Source of the DNA: Vulgatibacter sp.
GTDB taxonomy: Bacteria; Myxococcota; Myxococcia; Myxococcales; Vulgatibacteraceae
DNA: 64,000 nucleotides
Assembly (NCBI RefSeq): GCF_041687135.1
Contig: NZ_JAWLCN010000015.1
Location: forward strand, 12,033 to 76,032
Direction: 5' to 3'
Part shown: piece after piece, positions 3,704 through 62,560 of the stretch
How the letters are laid out: each line of letters starts with the position of its first letter
Position numbering within the stretch: position 1 is the stretch's first letter
Program-made: the position numbers and the translations under genes
The notes under the pieces: model-generated
Databases searched by the model: none
What the model was told of the DNA's origin: nothing
Seen by the model: the letters and a program-made list of their open reading frames with translations, nothing else

Positions 3704-4206
3704 GGCGCGGGCTCCTGGGCGCGGTGGCCCTCGCTGCCGCGCTCGCCGGCTGCGGCTATCGTTTCGCCGTCGGTGGCCCCGGCCTCCCCGACGGCGTCGG
3801 CCAGGTCCACGTGCCGGTCTTCGCGAACCGATCCACCGACGCGGAGGCCGGCGCGATCTTCGCCGAGGCGATGGCGGAGGCGCTGGCCCGGTCGGGCCAC
3901 GCCGGCGGTCCCTCGGCGCCTGCGCGCCTCGAGGGGACCGTCCTCTCCACCGCCTCCCGTCCCGCTGCCACCGGGCCCGACGGGCGCGACACGGGGCTCT
4001 ACCGCCTCGAAGCGAGGCTGCGCGTGGAGCTGCTGCGGCAGGGGCAGCTCCTCTGCGTTCGCGAGATCGCCGGGGGGGAGGACTACCTGCCCGCCGCCGA
4101 TCTGCTCGGCATCGAGGCCTCGCGCAGGCAGGCGCTCCGCCGGCTCGCCGGGCGGCTGATGGAGAGCGCGAGCGTCGAGCTCTGCGCGGTGGTGGCGGCA
4201 GAGTAG
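3700..4206 (+). CDS. lptE: LptE-like LPS-assembly lipoprotein
   Basis: This is the 3' tail of out-of-frame track ORF 1255..4206. GTG 3700 overlaps the leuS TGA (GTGA). The lipobox is ALAGC followed by GYRF as in LptE/RlpB. The leuS-lptE arrangement is conserved synteny. Confidence 0.7.
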   Translation: MRRGLLGAVALAAALAGCGYRFAVGGPGLPDGVGQVHVPVFANRSTDAEAGAIFAEAMAEALARSGHAGGPSAPARLEGTVLSTASRPAATGPDGRDTGLYRLEARLRVELLRQGQLLCVREIAGGEDYLPAADLLGIEASRRQALRRLAGRLMESASVELCAVVAAE

Positions 4207-4891: not shown

Positions 4892-5785
4892 TCAGCCGAG
4901 CTCCCCCTGCTTCTCGAGGGCCTTGGCCTCCTCCCAGAGCCGGTCCATCAGCTCCAGCGGCGCCACCTGCCCCGCGCCGAAGCCCTGCTCGTGGAGGCGT
5001 TCCTCGACCCAGAGGAAACGCCGCTCGAAACGGCCGACCGCCAGCCGGAGCGCGTCCTCCGCCGGGGTGCGGGCGTGGCGCGCCAGGTTCGCCAGGGCGA
5101 AGAGCACGTCGCCGAGCTCGTGCTCGATCGCCTTCGGATCGCCGGAGGCGAGGGCCTCGTCCAGCTCCGCCAGCTCCTCGTCCACCTTGGCCCGGACGCC
5201 AGCCAATTCCGGCCAGTCGAAGCCGATCCGCGAGGCCTTCTCGGTGATCCGCTCGGCGCGCAGGAGGCCCGGCGCGTGGCGCGGGACCCCCTCGATCACC
5301 GAGACCCGCTGGCCCTTCTTCCGTGCCTTCTCCGCGGCCTTGAGCTTCACCCAGTTGCGGCTCACCTCGTCGGCGTCGGTGATCGTGACGTCACCGAAGA
5401 CGTGGGGGTGGCGGTATTCGATCTTGTCGGAGATGGCCCTGGTCACGTCGGCGAAGTCCCAGTCGCCGTTCTCCCTGGCGATCTCCGCGTGGAAGATCAC
5501 CTGGAAGAGCAGGTCGCCCAGCTCCTCGCAGTGGTCGCGGCTGGAGTCGCCCTCCATCGCGTCGAGGACCTCGTAGGCCTCCTCCACCAGGTAGGGCTTG
5601 AGCGAATCGAAGGTCTGCTCCCGGTCCCACGGACAGCCGCCGGGGGCCCGGAGCCTGGCCATGATCCCGACGAGGCGCGTGATCTCCTCGGCGCTGCGCC
5701 GCCGGGTCTGCTCGAGTTCCTTCTCCACCACACACCTCCGGTCCGAATCGCCGGCGGCCATAGCAGCTTCCCGGCGCGGCGTCAC
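4892..5785 (-). CDS. mazG: MazG nucleoside triphosphate pyrophosphohydrolase
   Basis: RLRAPGGCPWDREQTFDSLKPYLVEEAYEVLDA is followed by a second MazG repeat (ELGDVLFALANLARH). The start is ambiguous (GTG 5785 or ATG 5761). Confidence 0.9.
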   Translation of the reverse strand: MTPRREAAMAAGDSDRRCVVEKELEQTRRRSAEEITRLVGIMARLRAPGGCPWDREQTFDSLKPYLVEEAYEVLDAMEGDSSRDHCEELGDLLFQVIFHAEIARENGDWDFADVTRAISDKIEYRHPHVFGDVTITDADEVSRNWVKLKAAEKARKKGQRVSVIEGVPRHAPGLLRAERITEKASRIGFDWPELAGVRAKVDEELAELDEALASGDPKAIEHELGDVLFALANLARHARTPAEDALRLAVGRFERRFLWVEERLHEQGFGAGQVAPLELMDRLWEEAKALEKQGELG

Positions 5786-15907: not shown

Positions 15908-17590
15908 TCAGGGGAGGAGCAGGAGCTCGGGCTCCGGCGCCACCCGGGTGATGACGTGGCCGGCGCCGCCGGCGGTGGGGGCGACGAGGGGGCCGCCGAA
16001 GGTGACCTGGCCGCCGCCGAGCCCGCCGTTGCCGCCGCAGGCGCCGCCGCCGTTGCCCACGTTGGTGAAGGTGCCCCCGACGGCGTTCGCTCCCGCAGCG
16101 CCGCCGAGGGCCTGCACGGTGCCGGTGACCGTGGGGGAGAGCGACGAGAGGAGCTGGACGATACCGCCGCCACCGCCGCCGCCGGCGCCCTCGCCGTTGC
16201 CGCCGCTGGTGGAGGGGCTGGCGCCGTTGCCGCCGTTGGCGCGGACGGTGCCGCCGATGGTGAGGCCGGTCTTGCCGAGGAGGGTGATCACGCCGCCGGC
16301 GCCGCCGCCGGTGCCGATGACGTCCACGGCGCCGGTGCCATTGGCGCCGTTCGCGTTGACGATGGCGCCGGCCATGATCCGCAGGTCGCCGCCGGCGAGG
16401 AGGGCGACGGTGCCGCCGCCCTCGCCGCCAGCGCCGTTGGTGGGGCGTGCGCCGGCGCCGGCGCCGGGGAGCTGTCCGACGGGGAGGGTCGCTGCCGGGG
16501 GGGCAGCGAGGCCGATGCCGCCGTGGTGGAGGCCGGCGCCGCCCCTGGCGACGCCCTGCGGTGCGGAGCCGCCGGGCGTGGCGACGGCGCCTGGCGCAAC
16601 GGTGATGGTGCCCGTCACGGTGATTTCGCCGGTGGCGCGGATCACGGTGCCGGAGGGGACGATCAGGTTGCCCGCGATGGTGATGGAGGTGAACTGCAGA
16701 TTCGCGCCGGCGGGGAGGGAGGCGTAGGCGGCGGTGGTGGTGAGGTCGAGCGTCTGGCCGAGGGCGAGGGAGAGGGAGCCCGCGGAGCCGTCGCCATAGA
16801 TGCGCTGGGAGCCGGACAGGCCCGGGGAGCCGGCCTCGCCCTGCGGGCCCTGCGGCCCCACCGGGCCGACGTCGCCCTGCGGACCGATGGCGCCCTGCAC
16901 GCCCTGCGGCCCCTGCGGGCCGGTGTCACCCTGGAGGCCCTGCGGTCCGATCGGGCCGGTGAGGCCCTGCTCGCCCTGCGGCCCCTGCGGGCCGATGTCG
17001 CCGCGGGGGCCCTGGGCGCCCTGCGGACCGGCCTCGCCCTGCGGGCCGACCGGGCCCTGGATCCCCTGGGGGCCGACGGCGCCGTTGCAGACGAGGCGGG
17101 TGAGGCTCTCGTCGATCTCCACGTCGTCGAGGAGGCCGCTGGCGTCGAGGTCGAGGCCCGCCTCGATTCGCACGCCGCCGGTGGGGCAGCCCTCGCCCGG
17201 CGCCTCCGGCGTGTTGCGGAAGAGGGCGTGGAGCCCTGCGGCGCCGGTGGCGCCCTGCGGGCCCTCGACGCCGTTGCAGACGTAGCGGCGCGTGGATCCG
17301 TCGATCTCGCCGTCGGCGAGGAAGCCGTCGCCGTCCCCGTCGAGGCCGGAGACGAGCAGCGTCCCACCGGCGGGGCAGTTGGCGCCGGCGGGCTCCTCCG
17401 CCGTGCGGGTGAGGGCGTTGCGGCCGTTCACGCCGGCGGGACCCACGGGGCCGATGGAACCGGCGGGGCCCGCGGGGCCGGCGTCACCGGTGTTGCCGGT
17501 GTCGCCCATTTCGCCTGCGCAGGCGGTGAAGAGCAGAGCGGTGGAGAGGAGCACGCGCGTCGCACGTGCAGGCGGCAGAATCGAGGACAT
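15908..17590 (-). CDS. collagen-like triple-helix-repeat lipoprotein with C-terminal Gly-rich beta-helix-like domain
   Basis: Track ORF 15908..17647. The start is moved to ATG 17590 ([24 protein letters not shown], lipobox). It has 10 GXY triplets, two Cys-bracketed DGDGDG/acidic modules, and 30 uninterrupted GXY triplets. A 300-aa Gly/Ala/Thr-rich region follows. Confidence 0.75.
16814..17083 (-). repeat. 30 uninterrupted Gly-X-Y codon triplets (mostly GPQ) inside the collagen-like gene
   Basis: [90 protein letters not shown]. The 9-nt periodicity is visible in the DNA. Confidence 0.9.
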
Positions 17591-17697
17591 CCGGACTCCC
17601 GTGGAATGGACGCGCGCACCCTCTTGCGAGTCGGCCCCGGAGGTCAAGGGGCGATGGGTGCAAGCGGATGACGCGTGCTGTGGGAGATTCGCCGCGG

Positions 17698-37345: not shown

Positions 37346-37361
37346 AGCAAGCGGCTTGCCA
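37346..37361 (-). promoter_or_regulatory. sigma-54 promoter upstream of flgF
   Basis: Minus strand reads TGGCAA gccgc TTGCT (GG-N10-GC with full TGGCA/TTGC arms). It lies 25 nt upstream of the flgF ATG, with a GAGGAGGA RBS in between. Confidence 0.7.
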
Positions 37362-37432
37362 GCGCGAAAGCGCCAGATTCGTGGCGCCCGCGCAGGCCCG
37401 TCCCATGCATCGTCTGGCGGGAGGAGGCGACG

Positions 37433-37895: not shown

Positions 37896-38612
37896 TCACC
37901 GATCCTCCGCGAGCGCCGCCCGGAGGCGCTTCGTCGCTTCGCCGTGGATCTGGCAGACCCGTGGCTCGCTCACCCCGAGGACCTGCGCGACCTCCTTGTT
38001 GGAGAGACCCTCTACGTAGCGGAGCGAGACGACGAGCTGCTGCCGCTCCGGTAGCGCGGCGATCGCCTGGGCGAGGCGGCCCTGCAGCCGCGCCCGATCG
38101 AGGAGCTCCTCCTGCAGCGGCGCAGGGCTCGGCGGCACCGTCGCCTCGTCGATCGGCACCACCGGCTGGAGCAGCGCGGCGAGCTCGCCGACCTCCTCCA
38201 CCGGCAGGTCGAGCGCCGCTGCGAGCTCCGCCTCGTCGGGCTCTCTGCCCAGCTTTTCCGCCAACTCCCTGCGCGCCGCCTGCAGCCGGTCGAGATCGGC
38301 CCGCAGCCTGCGGGGCAGGTGGTCGAGCCGGCGCAGTTCGTCGAGCATCGCGCCCCGGACTCGGTGCTCGGCGAAGGTTTCGAAGCGGACGTCCCGTGCA
38401 GCGTCGAAGCGGCGCGCTGCATCGAGGAGGCCCAGCGCGCCAGCCGACCAGAGATCGTCGAAGGCATGGTGCATCGCGGCGCGGAAGCAGAGGCGCCGCG
38501 CCATCCGGTCGAGGAGCGCAGCATGGCGCTCGACGAGCTGCGCCTCATCGAGACGGCTCGCCTGCGCGTAGAGCGCGTGGCCCCTGCGCGCGAATCCCCC
38601 GAGCGGCGTCAT
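37896..38612 (-). CDS. fliA: flagellar sigma factor FliA (sigma-28)
   Basis: Region 2 is FDDLWSAGALGLLDAARRFDAARDVRFETFAEHRVRGAMLDELR. Region 4 is LPERQQLVVSLRYVEGLSNKEVAQVLGVSEPRVCQIHGEA. It overlaps flhG by 4 nt. Confidence 0.9.
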   Translation of the reverse strand: MTPLGGFARRGHALYAQASRLDEAQLVERHAALLDRMARRLCFRAAMHHAFDDLWSAGALGLLDAARRFDAARDVRFETFAEHRVRGAMLDELRRLDHLPRRLRADLDRLQAARRELAEKLGREPDEAELAAALDLPVEEVGELAALLQPVVPIDEATVPPSPAPLQEELLDRARLQGRLAQAIAALPERQQLVVSLRYVEGLSNKEVAQVLGVSEPRVCQIHGEATKRLRAALAEDR

Positions 38613-39469
38613 GCCCGCGCCCGTGCCGCCGACTCGAGCATCAGCCTGTGCCAGAGGAACTTCAGCCCGCCGTCCAGCCGCGTCGGAGGCGGCCTGCGCA
38701 GGAGGTTCGCGACGACCCCTTCCAGCGCGCGGCTCACCGGGGAGAGCGGGTAGGCGTCGACCACGGGCCGCTGGCTCATCACCGCGCGGTGGACGTTCTC
38801 GTCCCGGGGGAGATGGCCGGCGTAGGAGAGCTGCGCCTCGAGGAAGCGCCGGGTGATTCCTTCGAGCTTGCCGAAGACCTCCCGGGCCTGCGCCTCGCTC
38901 GCCGCCGGATTGACCAGCACGTCGAAGTGGCGGACGCCCGCCGATTGCGAGAGCGCCTTCACCGCGGCGTAGGCGTCGGTGAGCGAAGTGGGCTCGGGGC
39001 TCACCACCAGCAGTGCCTCCTGCGCGGCACCCACGAAGAAGAGCACATTGTCGCCGATGCCTGCCGGGGAGTCGACGATCACGAAATCGAACTCCTCCTC
39101 GAGCTCGTCGAGGGCCCCGAGGAGACGGAGCTTCTCCAATTCGGCGAGCTGGGTGAGGTGCTGCAGGCCGGATCCTGCGGAGAGCACGCGGATCCCGTGC
39201 GGGCCCTCGGCGAGGACGTCGCGAACCGGCACCTCGAGGCGCAGTACGTCCCCCAGGTGGTGGCGCGGCCGGATCCCGAGGAGGATGTCGGCGTTGGCGA
39301 GGCCGAGGTCCGCGTCGACGAGGAGCACCCGCGAGCCGGCCCTGGCCACCAGCACCGCGAGGTTGGTCGAGATGGTGCTCTTGCCCACGCCCCCCTTGCC
39401 GGAGGTGACGGCGATGACCCGCAGCGGCTCGCCGCCCAGCAGGCTCTGTATCTCTTCTCTCGGATCCAT
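38609..39469 (-). CDS. flhG: MinD-like ATPase FlhG (FleN/YlxH)
   Basis: This is the tail of track ORF 38609..40693, starting at ATG 39469. The deviant Walker A is TSGKGGVGKST. A C-terminal amphipathic helix GLKFLWHRLM is present. Confidence 0.88.
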   Translation of the reverse strand: MDPREEIQSLLGGEPLRVIAVTSGKGGVGKSTISTNLAVLVARAGSRVLLVDADLGLANADILLGIRPRHHLGDVLRLEVPVRDVLAEGPHGIRVLSAGSGLQHLTQLAELEKLRLLGALDELEEEFDFVIVDSPAGIGDNVLFFVGAAQEALLVVSPEPTSLTDAYAAVKALSQSAGVRHFDVLVNPAASEAQAREVFGKLEGITRRFLEAQLSYAGHLPRDENVHRAVMSQRPVVDAYPLSPVSRALEGVVANLLRRPPPTRLDGGLKFLWHRLMLESAARARA

Positions 39470-39474
39470 TTCAC

Positions 39475-47724: not shown

Positions 47725-47739
47725 AGCAAGGGACGTGCC
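47725..47739 (-). promoter_or_regulatory. sigma-54 promoter upstream of fliL
   Basis: Minus strand reads aGGCACG tccc TTGCT, matching TGGCACG-N4-TTGCW. It lies 30 nt upstream of the fliL GTG, with a GGGAG RBS. Confidence 0.75.
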
Positions 47740-47791
47740 TGCCCGCTGCCCCGGCAGAAGCAGACCGGGATCGTCAGGCCGCTGGCAGGTT

Positions 47792-47807
47792 CGTCAGGGG
47801 TCTGACG
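47792..47807. promoter_or_regulatory. CGTCA-N6-TGACG palindrome (candidate enhancer/UAS for the fliL sigma-54 promoter)
   Basis: The sequence is CGTCAggggtcTGACG. Its centre is about 60 nt upstream of the -24 element. The same core GTCA-N6-TGAC occurs at 60303-60318 and twice at 61505-61537. Confidence 0.55.
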
Positions 47808-49516: not shown

Positions 49517-49723
49517 CTACCCTTCCCGCTGCGCTGCAGCGATCCGCCGCCGAAACGCCACCACCCGCTCGACCACTTCTTCGAGGGCCTCGCGCACCAG
49601 GATGCGCCCGCCGTTCGAGAGCGTCAGCATCGTGTCGGGGGTCCGCTCGACCGTGGCGACGAGATCGCTGTTCACGGCGATCTCGCGGCCGTCCAGCCTG
49701 GTGACGAGGATCATCTCCGCCAC
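49517..49723 (-). CDS. flbD: flagellar protein FlbD
   Basis: MILVTRLDGREIAVNSDLVATVERTPDTMLTLSNGGRILVREALEEVVERV matches the FlbD family. The true start is more likely ATG 49714 than GTG 49723. Confidence 0.8.
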   Translation of the reverse strand: MAEMILVTRLDGREIAVNSDLVATVERTPDTMLTLSNGGRILVREALEEVVERVVAFRRRIAAAQREG

Positions 49724-58553: not shown

Positions 58554-58958
58554 TCAGGCTGCGCCGTCCGAGGCGACGTAGCGGAGGATGGCCAGCTTGC
58601 GGGCTGCGGTCTTGGCTGCTGCCCCGTACTGCAGGCCATTCTCCGCGAGGGCGGCGAGGGTGCGGTCGGTGTCGACGGAATTGCCGTCGTGGCCAGGAGA
58701 TCCGCCGGCCGCCAGCACGGCAGCGCTCTCGACCGTACCGCCTCCCGCGGTTGCCAGCGGGATGTGGCCCTCCGATGGCAGCGGTGCGGACGCGGGAGAC
58801 GCCACTGCCGCTGCCATCGCCCGGGCGAAGTCGAGGTCCTGCGCCACGTAGCCGGGCGTGTCGGCGTTGGCGAGGTTTCCCGCCAGCACGTTGTGCCGGA
58901 TCATGCGTACGTCGAGGGCGCTCTCGAGCTGTGCGAGCGTCGGGTCGAAGAGTTTCAC
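58554..58958 (-). CDS. flgB: flagellar proximal rod protein FlgB
   Basis: This is the tail of track ORF 58554..59543. The start is GTG 58958 with an AGGAGGGA RBS. The sequence contains LDVRMIRHNVLAGNLANADTPGY. Confidence 0.9.
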   Translation of the reverse strand: MKLFDPTLAQLESALDVRMIRHNVLAGNLANADTPGYVAQDLDFARAMAAAVASPASAPLPSEGHIPLATAGGGTVESAAVLAAGGSPGHDGNSVDTDRTLAALAENGLQYGAAAKTAARKLAILRYVASDGAA

Positions 58959-60235
58959 GGTGCTCCCTCCTGCTGTCGCCCTGCGGCGGTCTCCCGCGAC
59001 GTCATCGTTTCCGGGGAGCCTTCGCCTTGCGAAGCGCGTGCCTCGCCGCGTGCTCGTGACGCCGCCGTCCGCGCCGCGTCGAGATCGTCGGCGATCGCCG
59101 AGGATCGTTCCGTCGGCGCAGAGGGAGCCGGCGGCAGCGGCGGCGCTGCTGCCGCCGGCTCCAGGCCCCGTTCGACGGCGCGCCAGGACGCGGACGCGAG
59201 CAGGGCAGGTGGCAGCCGCCGCCTGGCGAAGGCGAGGATGACTTCGGCGCGCACCAGGTCGTCCGCCTCGAGGAATAGCTCGGCGGCACGGAGGAGGTGC
59301 GCTGGCAGTTCGTCGGCCTCCGCCTCTTCCACCGTGGCCGACAGGGACCTGGCGCCGAAGGCGGGCGCGCCCGTCTCCGCTGCCACCTCCGCGGCAGCGC
59401 GCGCGAGGGCTGCTGCGAGCGGCTTTCCGGCCTCGTCGTCGAGGTCGGCGAAGGCGGCGAGGGCGTCGGCTCGAACCACCGGATCGTCGCTGCGCAGCCC
59501 CTCGAGCACGATGCGCCTGCAGAGAAGAGGTGCATGGGCGCACGCGGCGCCGCTGCCCGGCCCGAGACGCTGGAGTGCACCACCGAGGTCACCGTGGAAG
59601 GCCCGCGCCCTTGCGGCGCGGAGGTCCAGGTCGATCCGCAGCAGCCGGGGGAGGCCGACGCCGTCGAAGATCGCCCTTTCCTGCGTCGTCCCGAAGCAGC
59701 TCCCGGTGACCTCGCAGATCCGGGCGGTAGCCAGCCGTCCCCAGTTTCCGGTGCCGGCAGCCTCCTTCCAGGCCGCGAGGGCGGTGGCCCAGTCCCCGTC
59801 GGCGAGCGCGAGGTCGCCGCGCCGCACTGCCGCCGCCCGTGCTTCGGCCGCGCCTGCCTCCGGCGCGAGGAGCGGCGGGCCGTCCGGGCCCGCGCGCCAG
59901 GGGAGGCCGCGCAGCCTGTGGATCTCGAGGGCGCCGGGGCGCAGGTTCGCCGCGATGCGGCGGCTCACGCAGTGGAGGACGATCGCATCCGCCCGCTCCT
60001 CGAGCCTCGGGCAGGTGGGACCGAGCGCGTCGGCGCGCAGGCCGCGGGCGCCCCGGAGGACGAGGCGGGCGCCGAGCGCGTCGACCTCGAGGGTTGGGGC
60101 ACGGCCGGCGGGCAACGCCACGTACTCCACGCCTGCGGCAGCGAGCAGCCCGGGGGGCGCGGGCGCGGCAACCGCGACGTTCGCGGGAAGAGCGAGCGCG
60201 ATGAGGAGGTGGAGGAGGAGCGGGCGGGTGGACAC
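58955..60235 (-). CDS. hypothetical secreted 426-aa protein, first cistron of the flgB unit
   Basis: The signal peptide is MSTRPLLLHLLIALALPANVAVA-AP. The TGA overlaps the flgB GTG (GTGA). It is Ala/Leu/Arg-rich and helical, with a possibly TPR-like segment (GDWATALAAWKEAAGTGNWGRLATARI). I recognise no flagellar family. Confidence 0.6.
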   Translation of the reverse strand: MSTRPLLLHLLIALALPANVAVAAPAPPGLLAAAGVEYVALPAGRAPTLEVDALGARLVLRGARGLRADALGPTCPRLEERADAIVLHCVSRRIAANLRPGALEIHRLRGLPWRAGPDGPPLLAPEAGAAEARAAAVRRGDLALADGDWATALAAWKEAAGTGNWGRLATARICEVTGSCFGTTQERAIFDGVGLPRLLRIDLDLRAARARAFHGDLGGALQRLGPGSGAACAHAPLLCRRIVLEGLRSDDPVVRADALAAFADLDDEAGKPLAAALARAAAEVAAETGAPAFGARSLSATVEEAEADELPAHLLRAAELFLEADDLVRAEVILAFARRRLPPALLASASWRAVERGLEPAAAAPPLPPAPSAPTERSSAIADDLDAARTAASRARGEARASQGEGSPETMTSRETAAGRQQEGAP

Positions 60236-60246
60236 GCCCCTCTGTC

Positions 60247-60261
60247 CTGCAGCCGACGTGC
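60247..60261 (-). promoter_or_regulatory. candidate sigma-54 promoter upstream of orf426-flgB
   Basis: Minus strand reads cGGCACG tcgg cTGCA (GG-N10-GC). Caveat: the -12 GC lies only about 12 nt from GTG 60235, so the transcript would be essentially leaderless. Confidence 0.45.
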
Positions 60262-60302
60262 CGTCCAGACCGGGTCGAGAAGGCGGCAGCGGCCCTCTGG
60301 GG

Positions 60303-60318
60303 CGTCAAGGTGCTGACG
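60303..60318. promoter_or_regulatory. CGTCA-N6-TGACG palindrome overlapping the activator gene stop codon (candidate enhancer for the flgB-unit promoter)
   Basis: The sequence is CGTCAaggtgcTGACG. Its centre is about 50 nt upstream of the -24 element at 60260-60261. Confidence 0.5.
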
Positions 60319-61450
60319 GTGAAACCTGCCTGCGGCGGAGCTTCTCCACCAGCGTGGTCCGCTGCAATCCGAGTAGATCCGCCGCGGCTCGTTTGTTTCC
60401 GCCGGACTGCGCCAGGGCCGCCACGATGAGGCGGTCCTCCATCTCCCGGAGGAGCTGGGGCAGGTTCACGGGAAGGGTGGGAAGGGAGAGCGCCGGCGTG
60501 CGCTCTTCGAGCGCCTCGCGGTCCTGGTTCGCGCAGGGAGCGTTCGCCTCGGCCTCTGGCGCGAAGGGCACATCGTCGACCGGCGGCGCCAGCGGCATGA
60601 CGGACTCGGCAGCAGGCGGGGGAATCGGATCGGCGTGCAGGACGGGGGGCTCGCGCGGCGTCACTTCGATGGCGCCGCCGCGGAGGGACGCGGGCAGATC
60701 GTGCAGGCACACGGTCTCGCCCTCGGCGCAGACCGAGAGACGTTCCACGAGGTTCTCCAACTCGCGGATGTTGCCGGGCCACCGGTGGCCCTCGAGGGCG
60801 GTGAAGACCGAAGCCTCGACCTGCCGTGTCTCGCCGCGCTTTCCCCAGAAGTGGCAAAAGAGGGGAACGACGTCGCCCGGGCGCTCACGGAGTGGCGGCA
60901 GCTCGATCGGGCAGACGAGGAGGCGGAAGTAGAGGTCCTGCCGGAAGCGACCTGCTTCCACCTCGGCGGCGAGGTCGCGGTTGGTGGCGGCAACCAGGCG
61001 AAAGTCGGCTGCCACCGGCTCGGTGCTTCCCACCGGCTCGTAGCTTCGCTCCTGGAGGACCCGGAGCAACTTCACCTGAAGCGAGAGCGGCAGCTCGCCA
61101 ATCTCGTCGAGAAAGAGCGTGCCCCCTTCGGCCGCTGCGATCCTGCCCCGCCGGGGGGAGGAGGCACCGGTGAAGGCGCCCCGCACGTAGCCGAAGAGCT
61201 CGCTCTCCAGCAACGCCTCCGGAATTGCACCGCAATTGACCGGCACGAGCAGCCTTTCGGCCCGCGGGCTCGCCGCGTGGAGCAGCCGGGCGAAGACCTC
61301 CTTGCCGGTTCCCGTCTCGCCGGTCAGGAGGACGGTCGCGTCGCTGCGTGCGATCCGCCGCGAGACGCGGGCCAGCTCGGCGATCGGCGAATCGGCGCCG
61401 TGGACGAGGAGCGGCTTGGCGGCGGGGGTGGGGGCTGCAGGCAGGGCCAT
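60305..61450 (-). CDS. sigma-54-dependent transcriptional activator consisting only of AAA+ and Fis-type HTH domains (no receiver/FleQ N-domain)
   Basis: Walker A is GETGTGKE. The sigma-54 contact loop is GAFTGA (GYVRGAFTGA). Walker B is LFLDEIGE, followed by WPGNIRELEN. The C-terminal HTH is GGNKRAAADLLGLQRTTLVEKL. The start is set at ATG 61450 (GGAGAA RBS), and the AAA+ core begins about aa 15. Confidence 0.88.
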   Translation of the reverse strand: MALPAAPTPAAKPLLVHGADSPIAELARVSRRIARSDATVLLTGETGTGKEVFARLLHAASPRAERLLVPVNCGAIPEALLESELFGYVRGAFTGASSPRRGRIAAAEGGTLFLDEIGELPLSLQVKLLRVLQERSYEPVGSTEPVAADFRLVAATNRDLAAEVEAGRFRQDLYFRLLVCPIELPPLRERPGDVVPLFCHFWGKRGETRQVEASVFTALEGHRWPGNIRELENLVERLSVCAEGETVCLHDLPASLRGGAIEVTPREPPVLHADPIPPPAAESVMPLAPPVDDVPFAPEAEANAPCANQDREALEERTPALSLPTLPVNLPQLLREMEDRLIVAALAQSGGNKRAAADLLGLQRTTLVEKLRRRQVSPSAP

Positions 61451-61485
61451 CGCTTCTCCGGTGGGACAATTCCCCCGGTGTGGGT

Positions 61486-61501
61486 AGCAAGCCGTGGGCC
61501 A
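61486..61501 (-). promoter_or_regulatory. sigma-54 promoter upstream of the activator gene
   Basis: Minus strand reads TGGCCC acggc TTGCT, 35 nt upstream of ATG 61450. Confidence 0.7.
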
Positions 61502-61504
61502 CAC

Positions 61505-61537
61505 TGTCAGTCCCATGACAATGTCATTTCGGTGACA
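61505..61537. promoter_or_regulatory. two adjacent TGTCA-N6-TGACA palindromes
   Basis: TGTCAgtcccaTGACA (61505-61520), a, TGTCAtttcggTGACA (61522-61537). The junction TGACAaTGTCA is itself palindromic. The pair lies immediately upstream of the -24 element. Confidence 0.6.
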
Positions 61538-61546
61538 GGCCGGCGT

Positions 61547-62560
61547 TCAGGCCGAAGCGTCGAGCAACGTCTGGGCGGCCTTGCGCACCGGCCCCGCCGG
61601 CATCGGATGGGCAGCGAGGACGGCCCGGGCGCAGCGCCTGCGGACCTCCTCGGGCAGGTCGCCGGCGAGGATCAGCTCCGCCGCCTTCGTCGCCCCCGGC
61701 AGCCTTCCCAGGCCGGGGCCCGGACCGCCGTTCCAGCCGCCGCGGGCCGCGGCCTCGAGGCAGGCGGCGATGGGATCGGCGAGCGCCGGGTCGTCGGCGA
61801 GCAGCGCCGCAGCGTCCGCCAGCTCGAGGAGCGGCACCGCGGCGTAGGCCCGCGCCGCCGGATCCTCGATGGTGCCGGCGAGCCGGAGCGCTTCCGCTGC
61901 GAGGGGCGCCAACGCCTGCGGATCGTCCGCGGTGGCGAGGCCGAGCCGCTCGAGGGCCATCGCCCGCCCGATCCCCTCGGCGCGGCGGGCGAGCCGGAGC
62001 AGGACCTCCGGGCCGAGGGGCTCGGCGCTCATCGCGCAGACGCCGGCGAGGGCGGTGGAGCGGGCCGCCGTCTCGAAGAGCGGCAGATCCTCCGGCGCCG
62101 GCGCCAGGCCGACGAGCCCGATGGCAGCGGCGAGCACCTCCCAGCTGCCGGTGCGTTCCGCCAGGAGCCGGGCGGTGGCAACGAGGGCGGAGCGGGGGAG
62201 ATCCCCCCGGGCCTCGAGGCTCTCGAGGAGCGCGGGCAGCTCCCAGGGCTGCAGACCACCCAGCGCTTCCTCCAGCTCGTCGGGCCGCTTGCGGGCAGCT
62301 GCCGCCAGCAGCGCCGCGATCCGGCGACCGAGGCCTGCAGGTTCCCTGGCGCCGTAGGCGTGGAGCTCGGCGGCGAAGCGATCGCCCAGGCGCCGCTCCG
62401 CCTCGGCGGCAGCCTCCGACGGGGGCGGAAGGAGACCCGCAGCGCTGCCGCCGGGCACGCGGGCACGGAGCCCGGCGAGGAGCCCGGCAGCGCGCGGGCG
62501 GCGCTGCGCGACGCGTGAGCGGAGGAAGTCGAGAAGGCCCATCGGCGCGGGAAACTCCAT
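61547..62560 (-). CDS. hypothetical 337-aa all-helical protein
   Basis: This is the 3' part of track ORF 61547..63826; the upstream part of that ORF is antisense to bamA. The start is ATG 62560 (or 62542). It is Ala/Leu-rich and repeat-like (HEAT/ARM-like impression only). Confidence 0.5.
   Translation of the reverse strand: MEFPAPMGLLDFLRSRVAQRRPRAAGLLAGLRARVPGGSAAGLLPPPSEAAAEAERRLGDRFAAELHAYGAREPAGLGRRIAALLAAAARKRPDELEEALGGLQPWELPALLESLEARGDLPRSALVATARLLAERTGSWEVLAAAIGLVGLAPAPEDLPLFETAARSTALAGVCAMSAEPLGPEVLLRLARRAEGIGRAMALERLGLATADDPQALAPLAAEALRLAGTIEDPAARAYAAVPLLELADAAALLADDPALADPIAACLEAAARGGWNGGPGPGLGRLPGATKAAELILAGDLPEEVRRRCARAVLAAHPMPAGPVRKAAQTLLDASA

Follow-up and report, generated by a model that had tools for sequence, protein, structure and literature searches.

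The subject of this analysis is a pair of palindromic boxes that abut the sigma-54 promoter of an activator gene in a stretch of DNA from Vulgatibacter sp. (64,000 nucleotides, hereafter the window), and the closest described counterpart of these boxes is the FleQ box of Pseudomonas. According to Baraquet and Harwood (2016), as quoted in PMC6120874, the FleQ box reads GTCaNTAAAtTGAC in P. aeruginosa and GTCAaAAAAtTGAC in P. putida. It has a 14-bp core with inverted repeats that is thought to be bound by a helix-turn-helix (HTH) dimer, and it typically occurs singly at flagellar operons and in tandem, overlapping the regulatory regions, at biofilm genes that are repressed with FleN (PMC10723142). 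The boxes in the window have the same 14-bp core as those of P. aeruginosa and P. putida, with GTCA and TGAC inverted repeats 6 nucleotides (nt) apart, they stand at short, atypical distances from sigma-54 flagellar promoters, and tandem boxes are possible in both cases. The protein encoded downstream shares with FleQ an AAA+ domain and a recognition helix that contains RTTLVEK. In contrast, the spacers here are G+C-rich and unconstrained where those of Pseudomonas are TAAA-like, the wider myxobacterial family accepts GCCA/TGGC half-sites and prefers C...G flanks, and the Vulgatibacter activator has no FleQ N-terminal domain. The boxes also lie on the activator's own sigma-54-dependent promoter, whereas Pseudomonas fleQ is a class I gene.

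Within the same phylum, direct positive autoregulation of a sigma-54-dependent operon that codes for one of the bacterial enhancer-binding proteins (bEBPs) has been documented for Nla28 of Myxococcus, and Nla28 and other M. xanthus bEBPs resemble the present case in that the bEBP gene is on a sigma-54 promoter with the protein's own sites upstream (PMC9765219). Nla28, however, belongs to the response regulators and has a partner kinase; it has half-sites of 8 bp, CT(C/G)CG(C/G)AG, with variable spacing, and it is not reported to keep a fixed register relative to the -24 element. Regulators that sit beside their own promoter and damp their own expression are exemplified by PspF and by MrpC, which occupies site BS1 at the mrpC sigma-54 promoter (PMC10701913). 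MrpC is a CRP/Fnr protein and not the activator of that promoter, whereas in Vulgatibacter no candidate activator other than the presumed binder is visible for the promoter that its sites abut, a difference that also separates it from PspF. PspF is itself a sensor-less bEBP, and pspF is transcribed from a sigma-70 promoter. The classical bEBP enhancers, such as those of NtrC at glnAp2 and the NifA upstream activator sequence TGT-N10-ACA, are likewise dyad sites for a Fis-type HTH dimer, often paired, upstream of a -24/-12 promoter, and the TGTCA-N6-TGACA form seen in the window formally fits the NifA sequence. Such sites lie about 80-150 bp upstream and act by DNA looping, often with IHF, whereas the conserved site described here is centred at about -37.5 and is kept in a fixed register.

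Boxes and promoter in front of the activator gene

The region between the activator gene and the co-directional gene upstream of it contains two boxes and a promoter, which are listed with the activator gene itself.

61522..61537, minus strand: distal FleQ-type box TGTCACCGAAATGACA, core GTCA-N6-TGAC at 61523-61536, centre about -54.5 from the predicted transcription start
61505..61520, minus strand: proximal FleQ-type box TGTCATGGGACTGACA, core at 61506-61519, centre about -37.5 from the predicted transcription start
61486..61501, minus strand: sigma-54 promoter TGGCCCACGGCTTGCT, that is TGGCCC-ACGGC-TTGCT, with GG at 61500-61499 and GC at 61488-61487
60305..61450, minus strand: gene of the 381-amino-acid (aa) sigma-54 activator, a bEBP by Pfam, identical to an NCBI protein of Vulgatibacter sp. 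(Myxococcota)

Read along the minus strand, the distal box begins 9 nt from the stop codon of the upstream gene (61549-61547), a single T at 61521 separates it from the proximal box, and GTG stands between the proximal box and the promoter. The proximal box reaches to 4 nt before the TGG in the -24 element, which places its right half-site at -34 to -31. The promoter is followed by 35 nt and then by ATG 61450-61448, with a GGAG Shine-Dalgarno sequence at 61459-61456; the transcription start is predicted near 61475, and the 5′ untranslated region would then be about 25 nt long. An in-frame ATG within the proximal box (61514-61516, minus strand) would lengthen the activator open reading frame (ORF) to 403 aa, but ATG 61450 is favoured over it by the N-termini of the orthologs, by the Shine-Dalgarno sequence and by the NCBI gene model. 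A preliminary description of this DNA had given sequence and coordinates for 61486-61537 that proved right to the base when the minus strand was re-read, and the FleQ box that it named is the consensus GTCaNTAAAtTGAC of PMC6120874 with the inverted-repeat core of PMC10723142. Its "third palindrome", TGACA-T-TGTCA at the junction of the boxes, is a mere by-product of their being neighbours and adds no independent information.

Scanned exhaustively, the window holds exactly four copies of GTCA-N6-TGAC (at 47793, 60304, 61506 and 61523), the same four that had been listed before, and all of them adjoin sigma-54 promoters of the flagellar cluster. Dinucleotide shuffles give an expectation of 0.34 copies, and none of 100 shuffles reached four. 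The spacers of the four perfect boxes are CCGAAA, TGGGAC, GCACCT and GACCCC, none of which is the A/T-rich FleQ-type spacer (NTAAAt), in a window of 70-75% G+C. When one mismatch was allowed, no enrichment was found in the window (20 boxes versus 14 expected); the signal of such boxes sinks into the background, so that only perfect or nearly perfect boxes are informative within a single window. The promoter motif TGGC-N7-TTGC by itself was not enriched in the window either (3 found, 1.72 expected), and the call of a sigma-54 promoter therefore rests on conservation at orthologous loci.

Pfam agrees with the earlier identification of the downstream gene as a sigma-54 activator. Its product has a sigma-54 interaction AAA+ domain from residue 18 (PF00158, 5.4e-67), an AAA lid and a Fis-type HTH_8 domain (PF02954, 1.3e-11), and GAFTGA is present in the translation, as is the combination of AAA+ and C-terminal HTH_8 that characterizes FleQ and FlrA. 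No Pfam match to a receiver domain or to the FleQ N-terminal domain was found at the N-terminus, and most orthologs are likewise of about 360-420 aa without a receiver-domain match in Pfam. The best PDB matches of the activator, which concern the AAA+ domain, are P. aeruginosa FleQ (5exx and 8p53), and the best match of the DNA-binding domain is again FleQ (...AAADLLGLQRTTLVEKLRRR in the activator versus ...AAERLRIRRTTLVEKMRKYG in FleQ). The presumed recognition helix is QRTTLVEKLRRR, compared with RRTTLVEKMRKY in P. aeruginosa FleQ; RTTLVEK is identical between the two, while the helices of ZraR and of the Fis/NtrC type differ. This helix, QRTTLVEKLRRR, does not vary across 16 diverse orthologs or across 60 distinct C-terminal segments among the matches listed. 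Between the AAA+ and HTH domains there is a Pro/Ala-rich linker of about 70 residues (about 258-330; 60460-60680, minus strand), the length of which varies among orthologs and the reach of which may be relevant for a promoter-proximal site. The activator is the only bEBP in the 64-kb window; it heads a gene cluster that has sigma-54 promoters, fliA and flhF/flhG, as in the FleQ/FlrA type of context, and the synteny is kept in relatives.

Conservation of the boxes at orthologous loci

Orthologs were gathered both by exact protein look-up and by scanning metagenomes with an alignment restricted to the HTH region, and 26 non-redundant upstream regions were each anchored on the best sigma-54 promoter. 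That promoter, almost always TGGCCC-N5-TTGCT, is separated from the start codon by 40-94 nt. Of the 26 regions, 17 have a GYCA-N6-TGRC whose first base is 16-19 nt upstream of the T in TGG, where a background rate of 0.27-0.45 boxes per kb leads one to expect about 0.05 by chance; the position of the proximal box is fixed to within 1-2 bp across orthologs, and no other offset is occupied in more than two promoters. About half of the orthologs have a second box, at offsets of -34 to -60. The 17 spacers are all distinct and mostly G+C-rich, and the mean pairwise identity among the 17 boxed promoters is near random in the spacer (0.37) and in the 20 nt upstream (0.33) but reaches 0.76 in the promoter, from which it follows that the box is not merely inherited sequence. 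A motif-blind dyad search of the 75 nt upstream of the ortholog promoters ranked GTCA-N6-TGAC first (38-fold), extended to CGT-N10-ACG. As a negative control we used 610 kb around unrelated bEBPs (at most 54% identity, taken from among the matches listed in a scan of genome contigs with the full-length protein), where none of 41 strong sigma-54-like promoters has a box at that offset.

The two closest relatives (loci L081 and L082), which are 81% and 76% identical to the activator over the aligned AAA+ region and keep the synteny, also keep both boxes in place, with the distal one at 3910 in L081 and 3907 in L082 and the proximal one nearly unchanged (GTCATGGGAGTGAC). The sigma-54 promoter and the adjoining box of the preliminary description are both conserved before orthologous genes, as an autoregulatory site predicts.

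Many relatives carry a second sensor-less bEBP gene between the gene of about 440 aa described below and flgB (L083 12594-13739; L085 12488-13381), and the helix of this second protein is NtrC-like (RTLRNKL), unlike the FleQ-like helix. The window is without this gene, and in it the boxes have spread to further promoters. The scarcity of the box at other promoters of those relatives indicates that it follows the FleQ-like protein, and chiefly that protein's own promoter. At Anaeromyxobacter-type loci the activator gene comes first in the cluster and is divergent from a housekeeping gene; no promoter other than the sigma-54 one was identified there, in regions that were not scanned for sigma-70-type promoters. 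In orthologs of this type a TGGCGCCA palindrome, absent from the window, immediately follows the -12 element, around the predicted start (L083 9949-9960 and L084 9947-9956, as well as L088, L090, L093 and L114, just after TTGCT), and it may be a further operator.

Probable autoregulation by the activator and alternative explanations

On this comparative sequence evidence the boxes form a cis-element that is under selection and locked in position at the sigma-54 promoter of the activator gene itself. We read them as candidate binding sites of the activator encoded directly downstream, which would make the gene autoregulated, and we give this reading a probability of roughly 0.6. Since the core architecture is that of the FleQ box and a FleQ-like protein is encoded next door, the activator is the likeliest reader of the boxes, and the similarity of its HTH to that of FleQ makes it most likely their binder. 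The palindromes would be sites for dimers of its Fis-type HTH and would form, with the abutting -24/-12 promoter, a direct autoregulatory unit. Because the activator has no sensory domain, its amount is probably a main control point.

The preliminary description had also proposed an autoregulatory switch, and this part of it agrees with the FleQ-like core, with the nature of the activator gene and with the conservation of promoter and box. Its preference for repression or architectural control finds no specific support. Boxes at about -43 to -86 also precede structural genes that need activation. The presence of the same boxes near three other sigma-54 promoters of structural genes makes close-range activation at least as likely as repression. 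We therefore favour close-range positive feedback that is possibly self-limiting, with pure repression as the main rival; the sign of regulation, the start and the geometry are what we infer from the DNA. A sigma-54 promoter needs a bEBP, and this activator is the only one visible in the window. In Anaeromyxobacter-type loci, moreover, the activator gene heads the cluster with a sigma-54 promoter as the only one identified. By analogy, the direct activation by Myxococcus Nla28 of its own sigma-54 operon (PMC9765219) and the putative FleQ sites that have been reported in P. putida either upstream or downstream of the sigma-54 motif suggest that such an arrangement could be activating.

In the course of events that we propose, basal transcription would provide a little activator, a possible source here being read-through from the co-directional upstream gene. 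The activator would then occupy the boxes centred at about -37.5 and -54.5, and its AAA+ ring, carried on the flexible linker of about 70 residues, would reach sigma-54 at the adjacent promoter, so that opening and positive feedback would follow. This step would need no long-range DNA looping, and a reach from -37 by way of the linker is speculation. The positions -34 to -31 are the edge of the region that is normally covered by the sigma-54 holoenzyme. The proximal half-site would touch that upstream edge, and full occupancy may for this reason limit expression. Low occupancy would give feed-forward and high occupancy self-limitation, a combination that would suit a protein without a sensory domain, and the same boxes at -43 to -86 would serve the promoters of fliL, flgF and the gene of a 426-aa protein.

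Several observations weigh against this reading. A box at -37.5 is closer than almost all characterised enhancers and could equally block the holoenzyme. The fixed offset holds no GYCA-N6-TGRC in 9 of the 26 orthologs, among them that of A. dehalogenans, which retains only the right half-site in its proper place; besides A. dehalogenans, 4-5 orthologs have no box. In A. dehalogenans 2CP-C the orthologous locus is at CP000251 1595437-1616705. L081, which has both boxes, keeps TTGCTACC at 3940-3965 but lacks the -24 GG at the right spacing (CCCTGCTGGCGGTTGCT), which is either an assembly error or a decayed promoter. In the relatives with two bEBPs most of the other flagellar sigma-54 promoters are without a box, an observation that fits an operator role too. 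As for the comparison with Pseudomonas, the FleQ consensus is contested there, since chromatin immunoprecipitation sequencing in P. fluorescens and P. putida failed to recover it (PMC6120874), and fleQ is not regulated by FleQ itself.

The main rival is that the boxes are a purely negative autoregulatory operator, at which the FleQ-like protein hinders the binding or isomerisation of the sigma-54 holoenzyme and so caps its own level; the promoter would then have to be activated by activator in solution or by another bEBP encoded elsewhere in the genome, or expression would have to rely on read-through. The most conserved feature of the box is a fixed, promoter-hugging position, and the proximal box with its 4-nt distance from TGG and its right half-site at -34 to -31 is well placed for such an effect; in the two-bEBP relatives the box is largely limited to the activator's own promoter. 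There are also precedents: tandem FleQ boxes in Pseudomonas go with repression and FleN (PMC10723142), a FlhG/FleN-like ATPase being encoded at 38609-39472 in the present cluster, and MrpC has been proposed to hinder sigma-54 sterically beside a sigma-54 promoter of Myxococcus (PMC10701913). However, a sigma-54 promoter cannot fire without a bEBP, and neither another bEBP in the window nor another enhancer motif in the dyad search was seen. Structural flagellar genes, which have to be activated, carry boxes in front of them at a comparably short range (-43 to -86), and in L081 boxes stand at offsets of -43 and -24 before the 440-aa gene. We consider pure repression rather unlikely on balance, though a serious competitor of positive feedback.

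A different binder, for example a protein of the CRP/Fnr family that would couple expression of the activator to a metabolic or developmental signal, appears improbable. Proteins of this family recognize 5-6-5 palindromes of the TGTGA-N6-TCACA type, and the 16-bp form of the box in the window, TGTCA-N6-TGACA, has that architecture; CooA and MrpC sites contain TGTC...GACA. MrpC binds beside a Myxococcus sigma-54 promoter, with the TGT of its consensus being essential (PMC10701913), and repression of fleQ in Pseudomonas by the CRP ortholog Vfr is mentioned as a reported finding. The fit is limited to the window, however, since the outer TGT...ACA is not conserved across orthologs: their consensus is CGTCA-N6-TGACG, often with GCCA-N6-TGGC, and with the outer T/A replaced by C/G the TGT needed at sites of the CRP or MrpC type is missing in most of them. 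The box instead follows a gene whose product has a FleQ-matching HTH, the FleQ core is exactly GTCA-N6-TGAC, and no CRP-family gene was seen in the flagellar cluster, the part of the genome to which this observation applies.

That the palindromes act as an RNA hairpin or terminator of the upstream gene, or are chance or inherited sequence without function, is very improbable: the boxes do start just past the stop codon of a co-directional gene and could on paper form nested hairpins of -26.3 kcal/mol, but the fold does not surpass that of shuffled sequence (z = -1.29, with 22 of 200 shuffles folding equally well), there is no T-run, no terminator-like site (0 sites) and no relevant Rfam match, the box keeps its place in Anaeromyxobacter-type loci that have no co-directional upstream gene, conserved half-sites with free spacers are the signature of a protein-binding site and not of a stem, and chance is excluded by the enrichment in the window, the fixed-offset count in the orthologs and the control with 41 promoters.

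Myxococcus already offers examples of autoregulated sigma-54-dependent activator genes; the novelty here lies in the fixed register of the box against the -24 element and its conservation across a broad and little-studied family, which extends over Vulgatibacter, Anaeromyxobacter and many soil and sediment metagenome lineages. A wider proposal, which we offer tentatively and regard as possible though doubtful, is that flagellated Myxococcota have a family of sensor-less FleQ-like activators with their own site locked in register 4-5 nt from their own -24 element, as a looping-independent "contact enhancer" in a bistable or pulse-generating motility switch. If this were true, the length and flexibility of the linker would bring sigma-54 within reach of the AAA+ ring from -37, and the switch would arise from positive feedback and self-occlusion on one operator. 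Textbooks present the bEBPs as the standard example of action at a distance in bacteria, and a site whose edge is kept in register 4-5 nt from the -24 element offers a natural test system for two questions, namely what the minimum distance is at which an AAA+ activator can remodel sigma-54, and whether one site can both activate and limit a promoter. The finding also provides a testable model of flagellar control in the Myxococcota, which are known for gliding and not for swimming, and in which such regulation appears to be largely unstudied. Finally, an independent phylogenetic footprint extends the contested Pseudomonas FleQ consensus to a distant phylum and supports GTCA/TGAC as its base-specific part.

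The flagellar cluster and its other promoters

The complete flagellar cluster is on the minus strand, from about 24.7 kb to 62.6 kb of the window. Its genes are, in order, those of a helical protein of about 335 aa, the sigma-54 activator and a 426-aa signal-peptide protein, followed by flgB, flgC, fliE, fliF, fliG, fliH, fliI, flgD, flgE, a small flbD-like ORF, motA, motB, fliL, fliO, fliP, fliR, flhB, flhA, flhF, a gene of a MinD/FlhG-type ATPase, fliA, flgF, flgG, flgH, flgM, flgK and fliD. Matches to the sigma-54 promoter on the coding strand precede five genes (the activator gene, the 426-aa gene, flgB, fliL and flgF), and boxes are found upstream of four of these five promoters, that of flgB being the one without. 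The features other than those of the activator promoter are as follows.

60304..60317, minus strand: perfect box GTCAGCACCTTGAC, overlapping the activator stop codon, centre about -73.5 from the start of the 426-aa gene's promoter
60248..60263, minus strand: sigma-54 promoter CGGCACGTCGGCTGCA of the 426-aa signal-peptide gene (58955-60235), also in L081 (5450) and L082 (5312)
59028-59043, minus strand: sigma-54 promoter of flgB, GGCAC-N5-TCGCA, very well conserved, about 25-30 nt before the flgB start codon
47773..47806, minus strand: two boxes upstream of fliL, the perfect GTCAGACCCCTGAC at 47806-47793 (about -85.5) and GCCAGCGGCCTGAC at 47786-47773 (about -65.5)
47725..47740, minus strand: sigma-54 promoter AGGCACGTCCCTTGCT of fliL, the downstream gene having a FliL Pfam match
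37372..37385, minus strand: degenerate box GCCACGAATCTGGC before flgF, a GCCA...TGGC variant, centre about -43.5
37346..37361, minus strand: sigma-54 promoter TGGCAAGCCGCTTGCT of flgF

The two further sigma-54 promoters in front of which boxes had been noted before are thus real promoter matches, AGGCACGTCCCTTGCT for fliL and CGGCACGTCGGCTGCA for the 426-aa gene. The intergenic region between the activator and the next gene has boxes in the closest relatives as well, at 5407 and 5426 in L081 and at 5185 in L082. We looked for helical phasing of the distances from box to promoter across the promoters and saw none. The flgB promoter recurs at L081 6761, L082 6608, L083 13709, L084 12666 and some 15 further loci, mostly within or just past the 3′ end of the preceding gene and usually without a full box nearby.

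The genes that flank the activator gene (61547-62560 and 58955-60235, both on the minus strand) have no match in Pfam or NCBIfam. The helical protein of about 335 aa (61547-62560) was found only in Vulgatibacter-type loci, while the secreted 426-aa protein has a counterpart of about 435-441 aa at every locus whose gene calls were inspected. The sigma-54 promoter of this gene, which encodes 426-440 aa, ends exactly 13 nt before the called start in the window (60233-60263), in L081 (5450-5480) and in L082 (5312-5342), which points to a leaderless mRNA or, alternatively, to a miscalled start codon. The gap between flgE and motA is occupied by an unlisted small ORF at 49527-49715 on the minus strand (MILVTRLDGREIAVNSDL...), which reads like the flagellar protein FlbD; a one-mismatch box at 49623 sits inside this ORF and not in an intergenic gap, and is probably due to chance. 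Outside the flagellar cluster, a collagen-triple-helix repeat protein with a DUF7151 domain is encoded at 15908-17647 on the minus strand.

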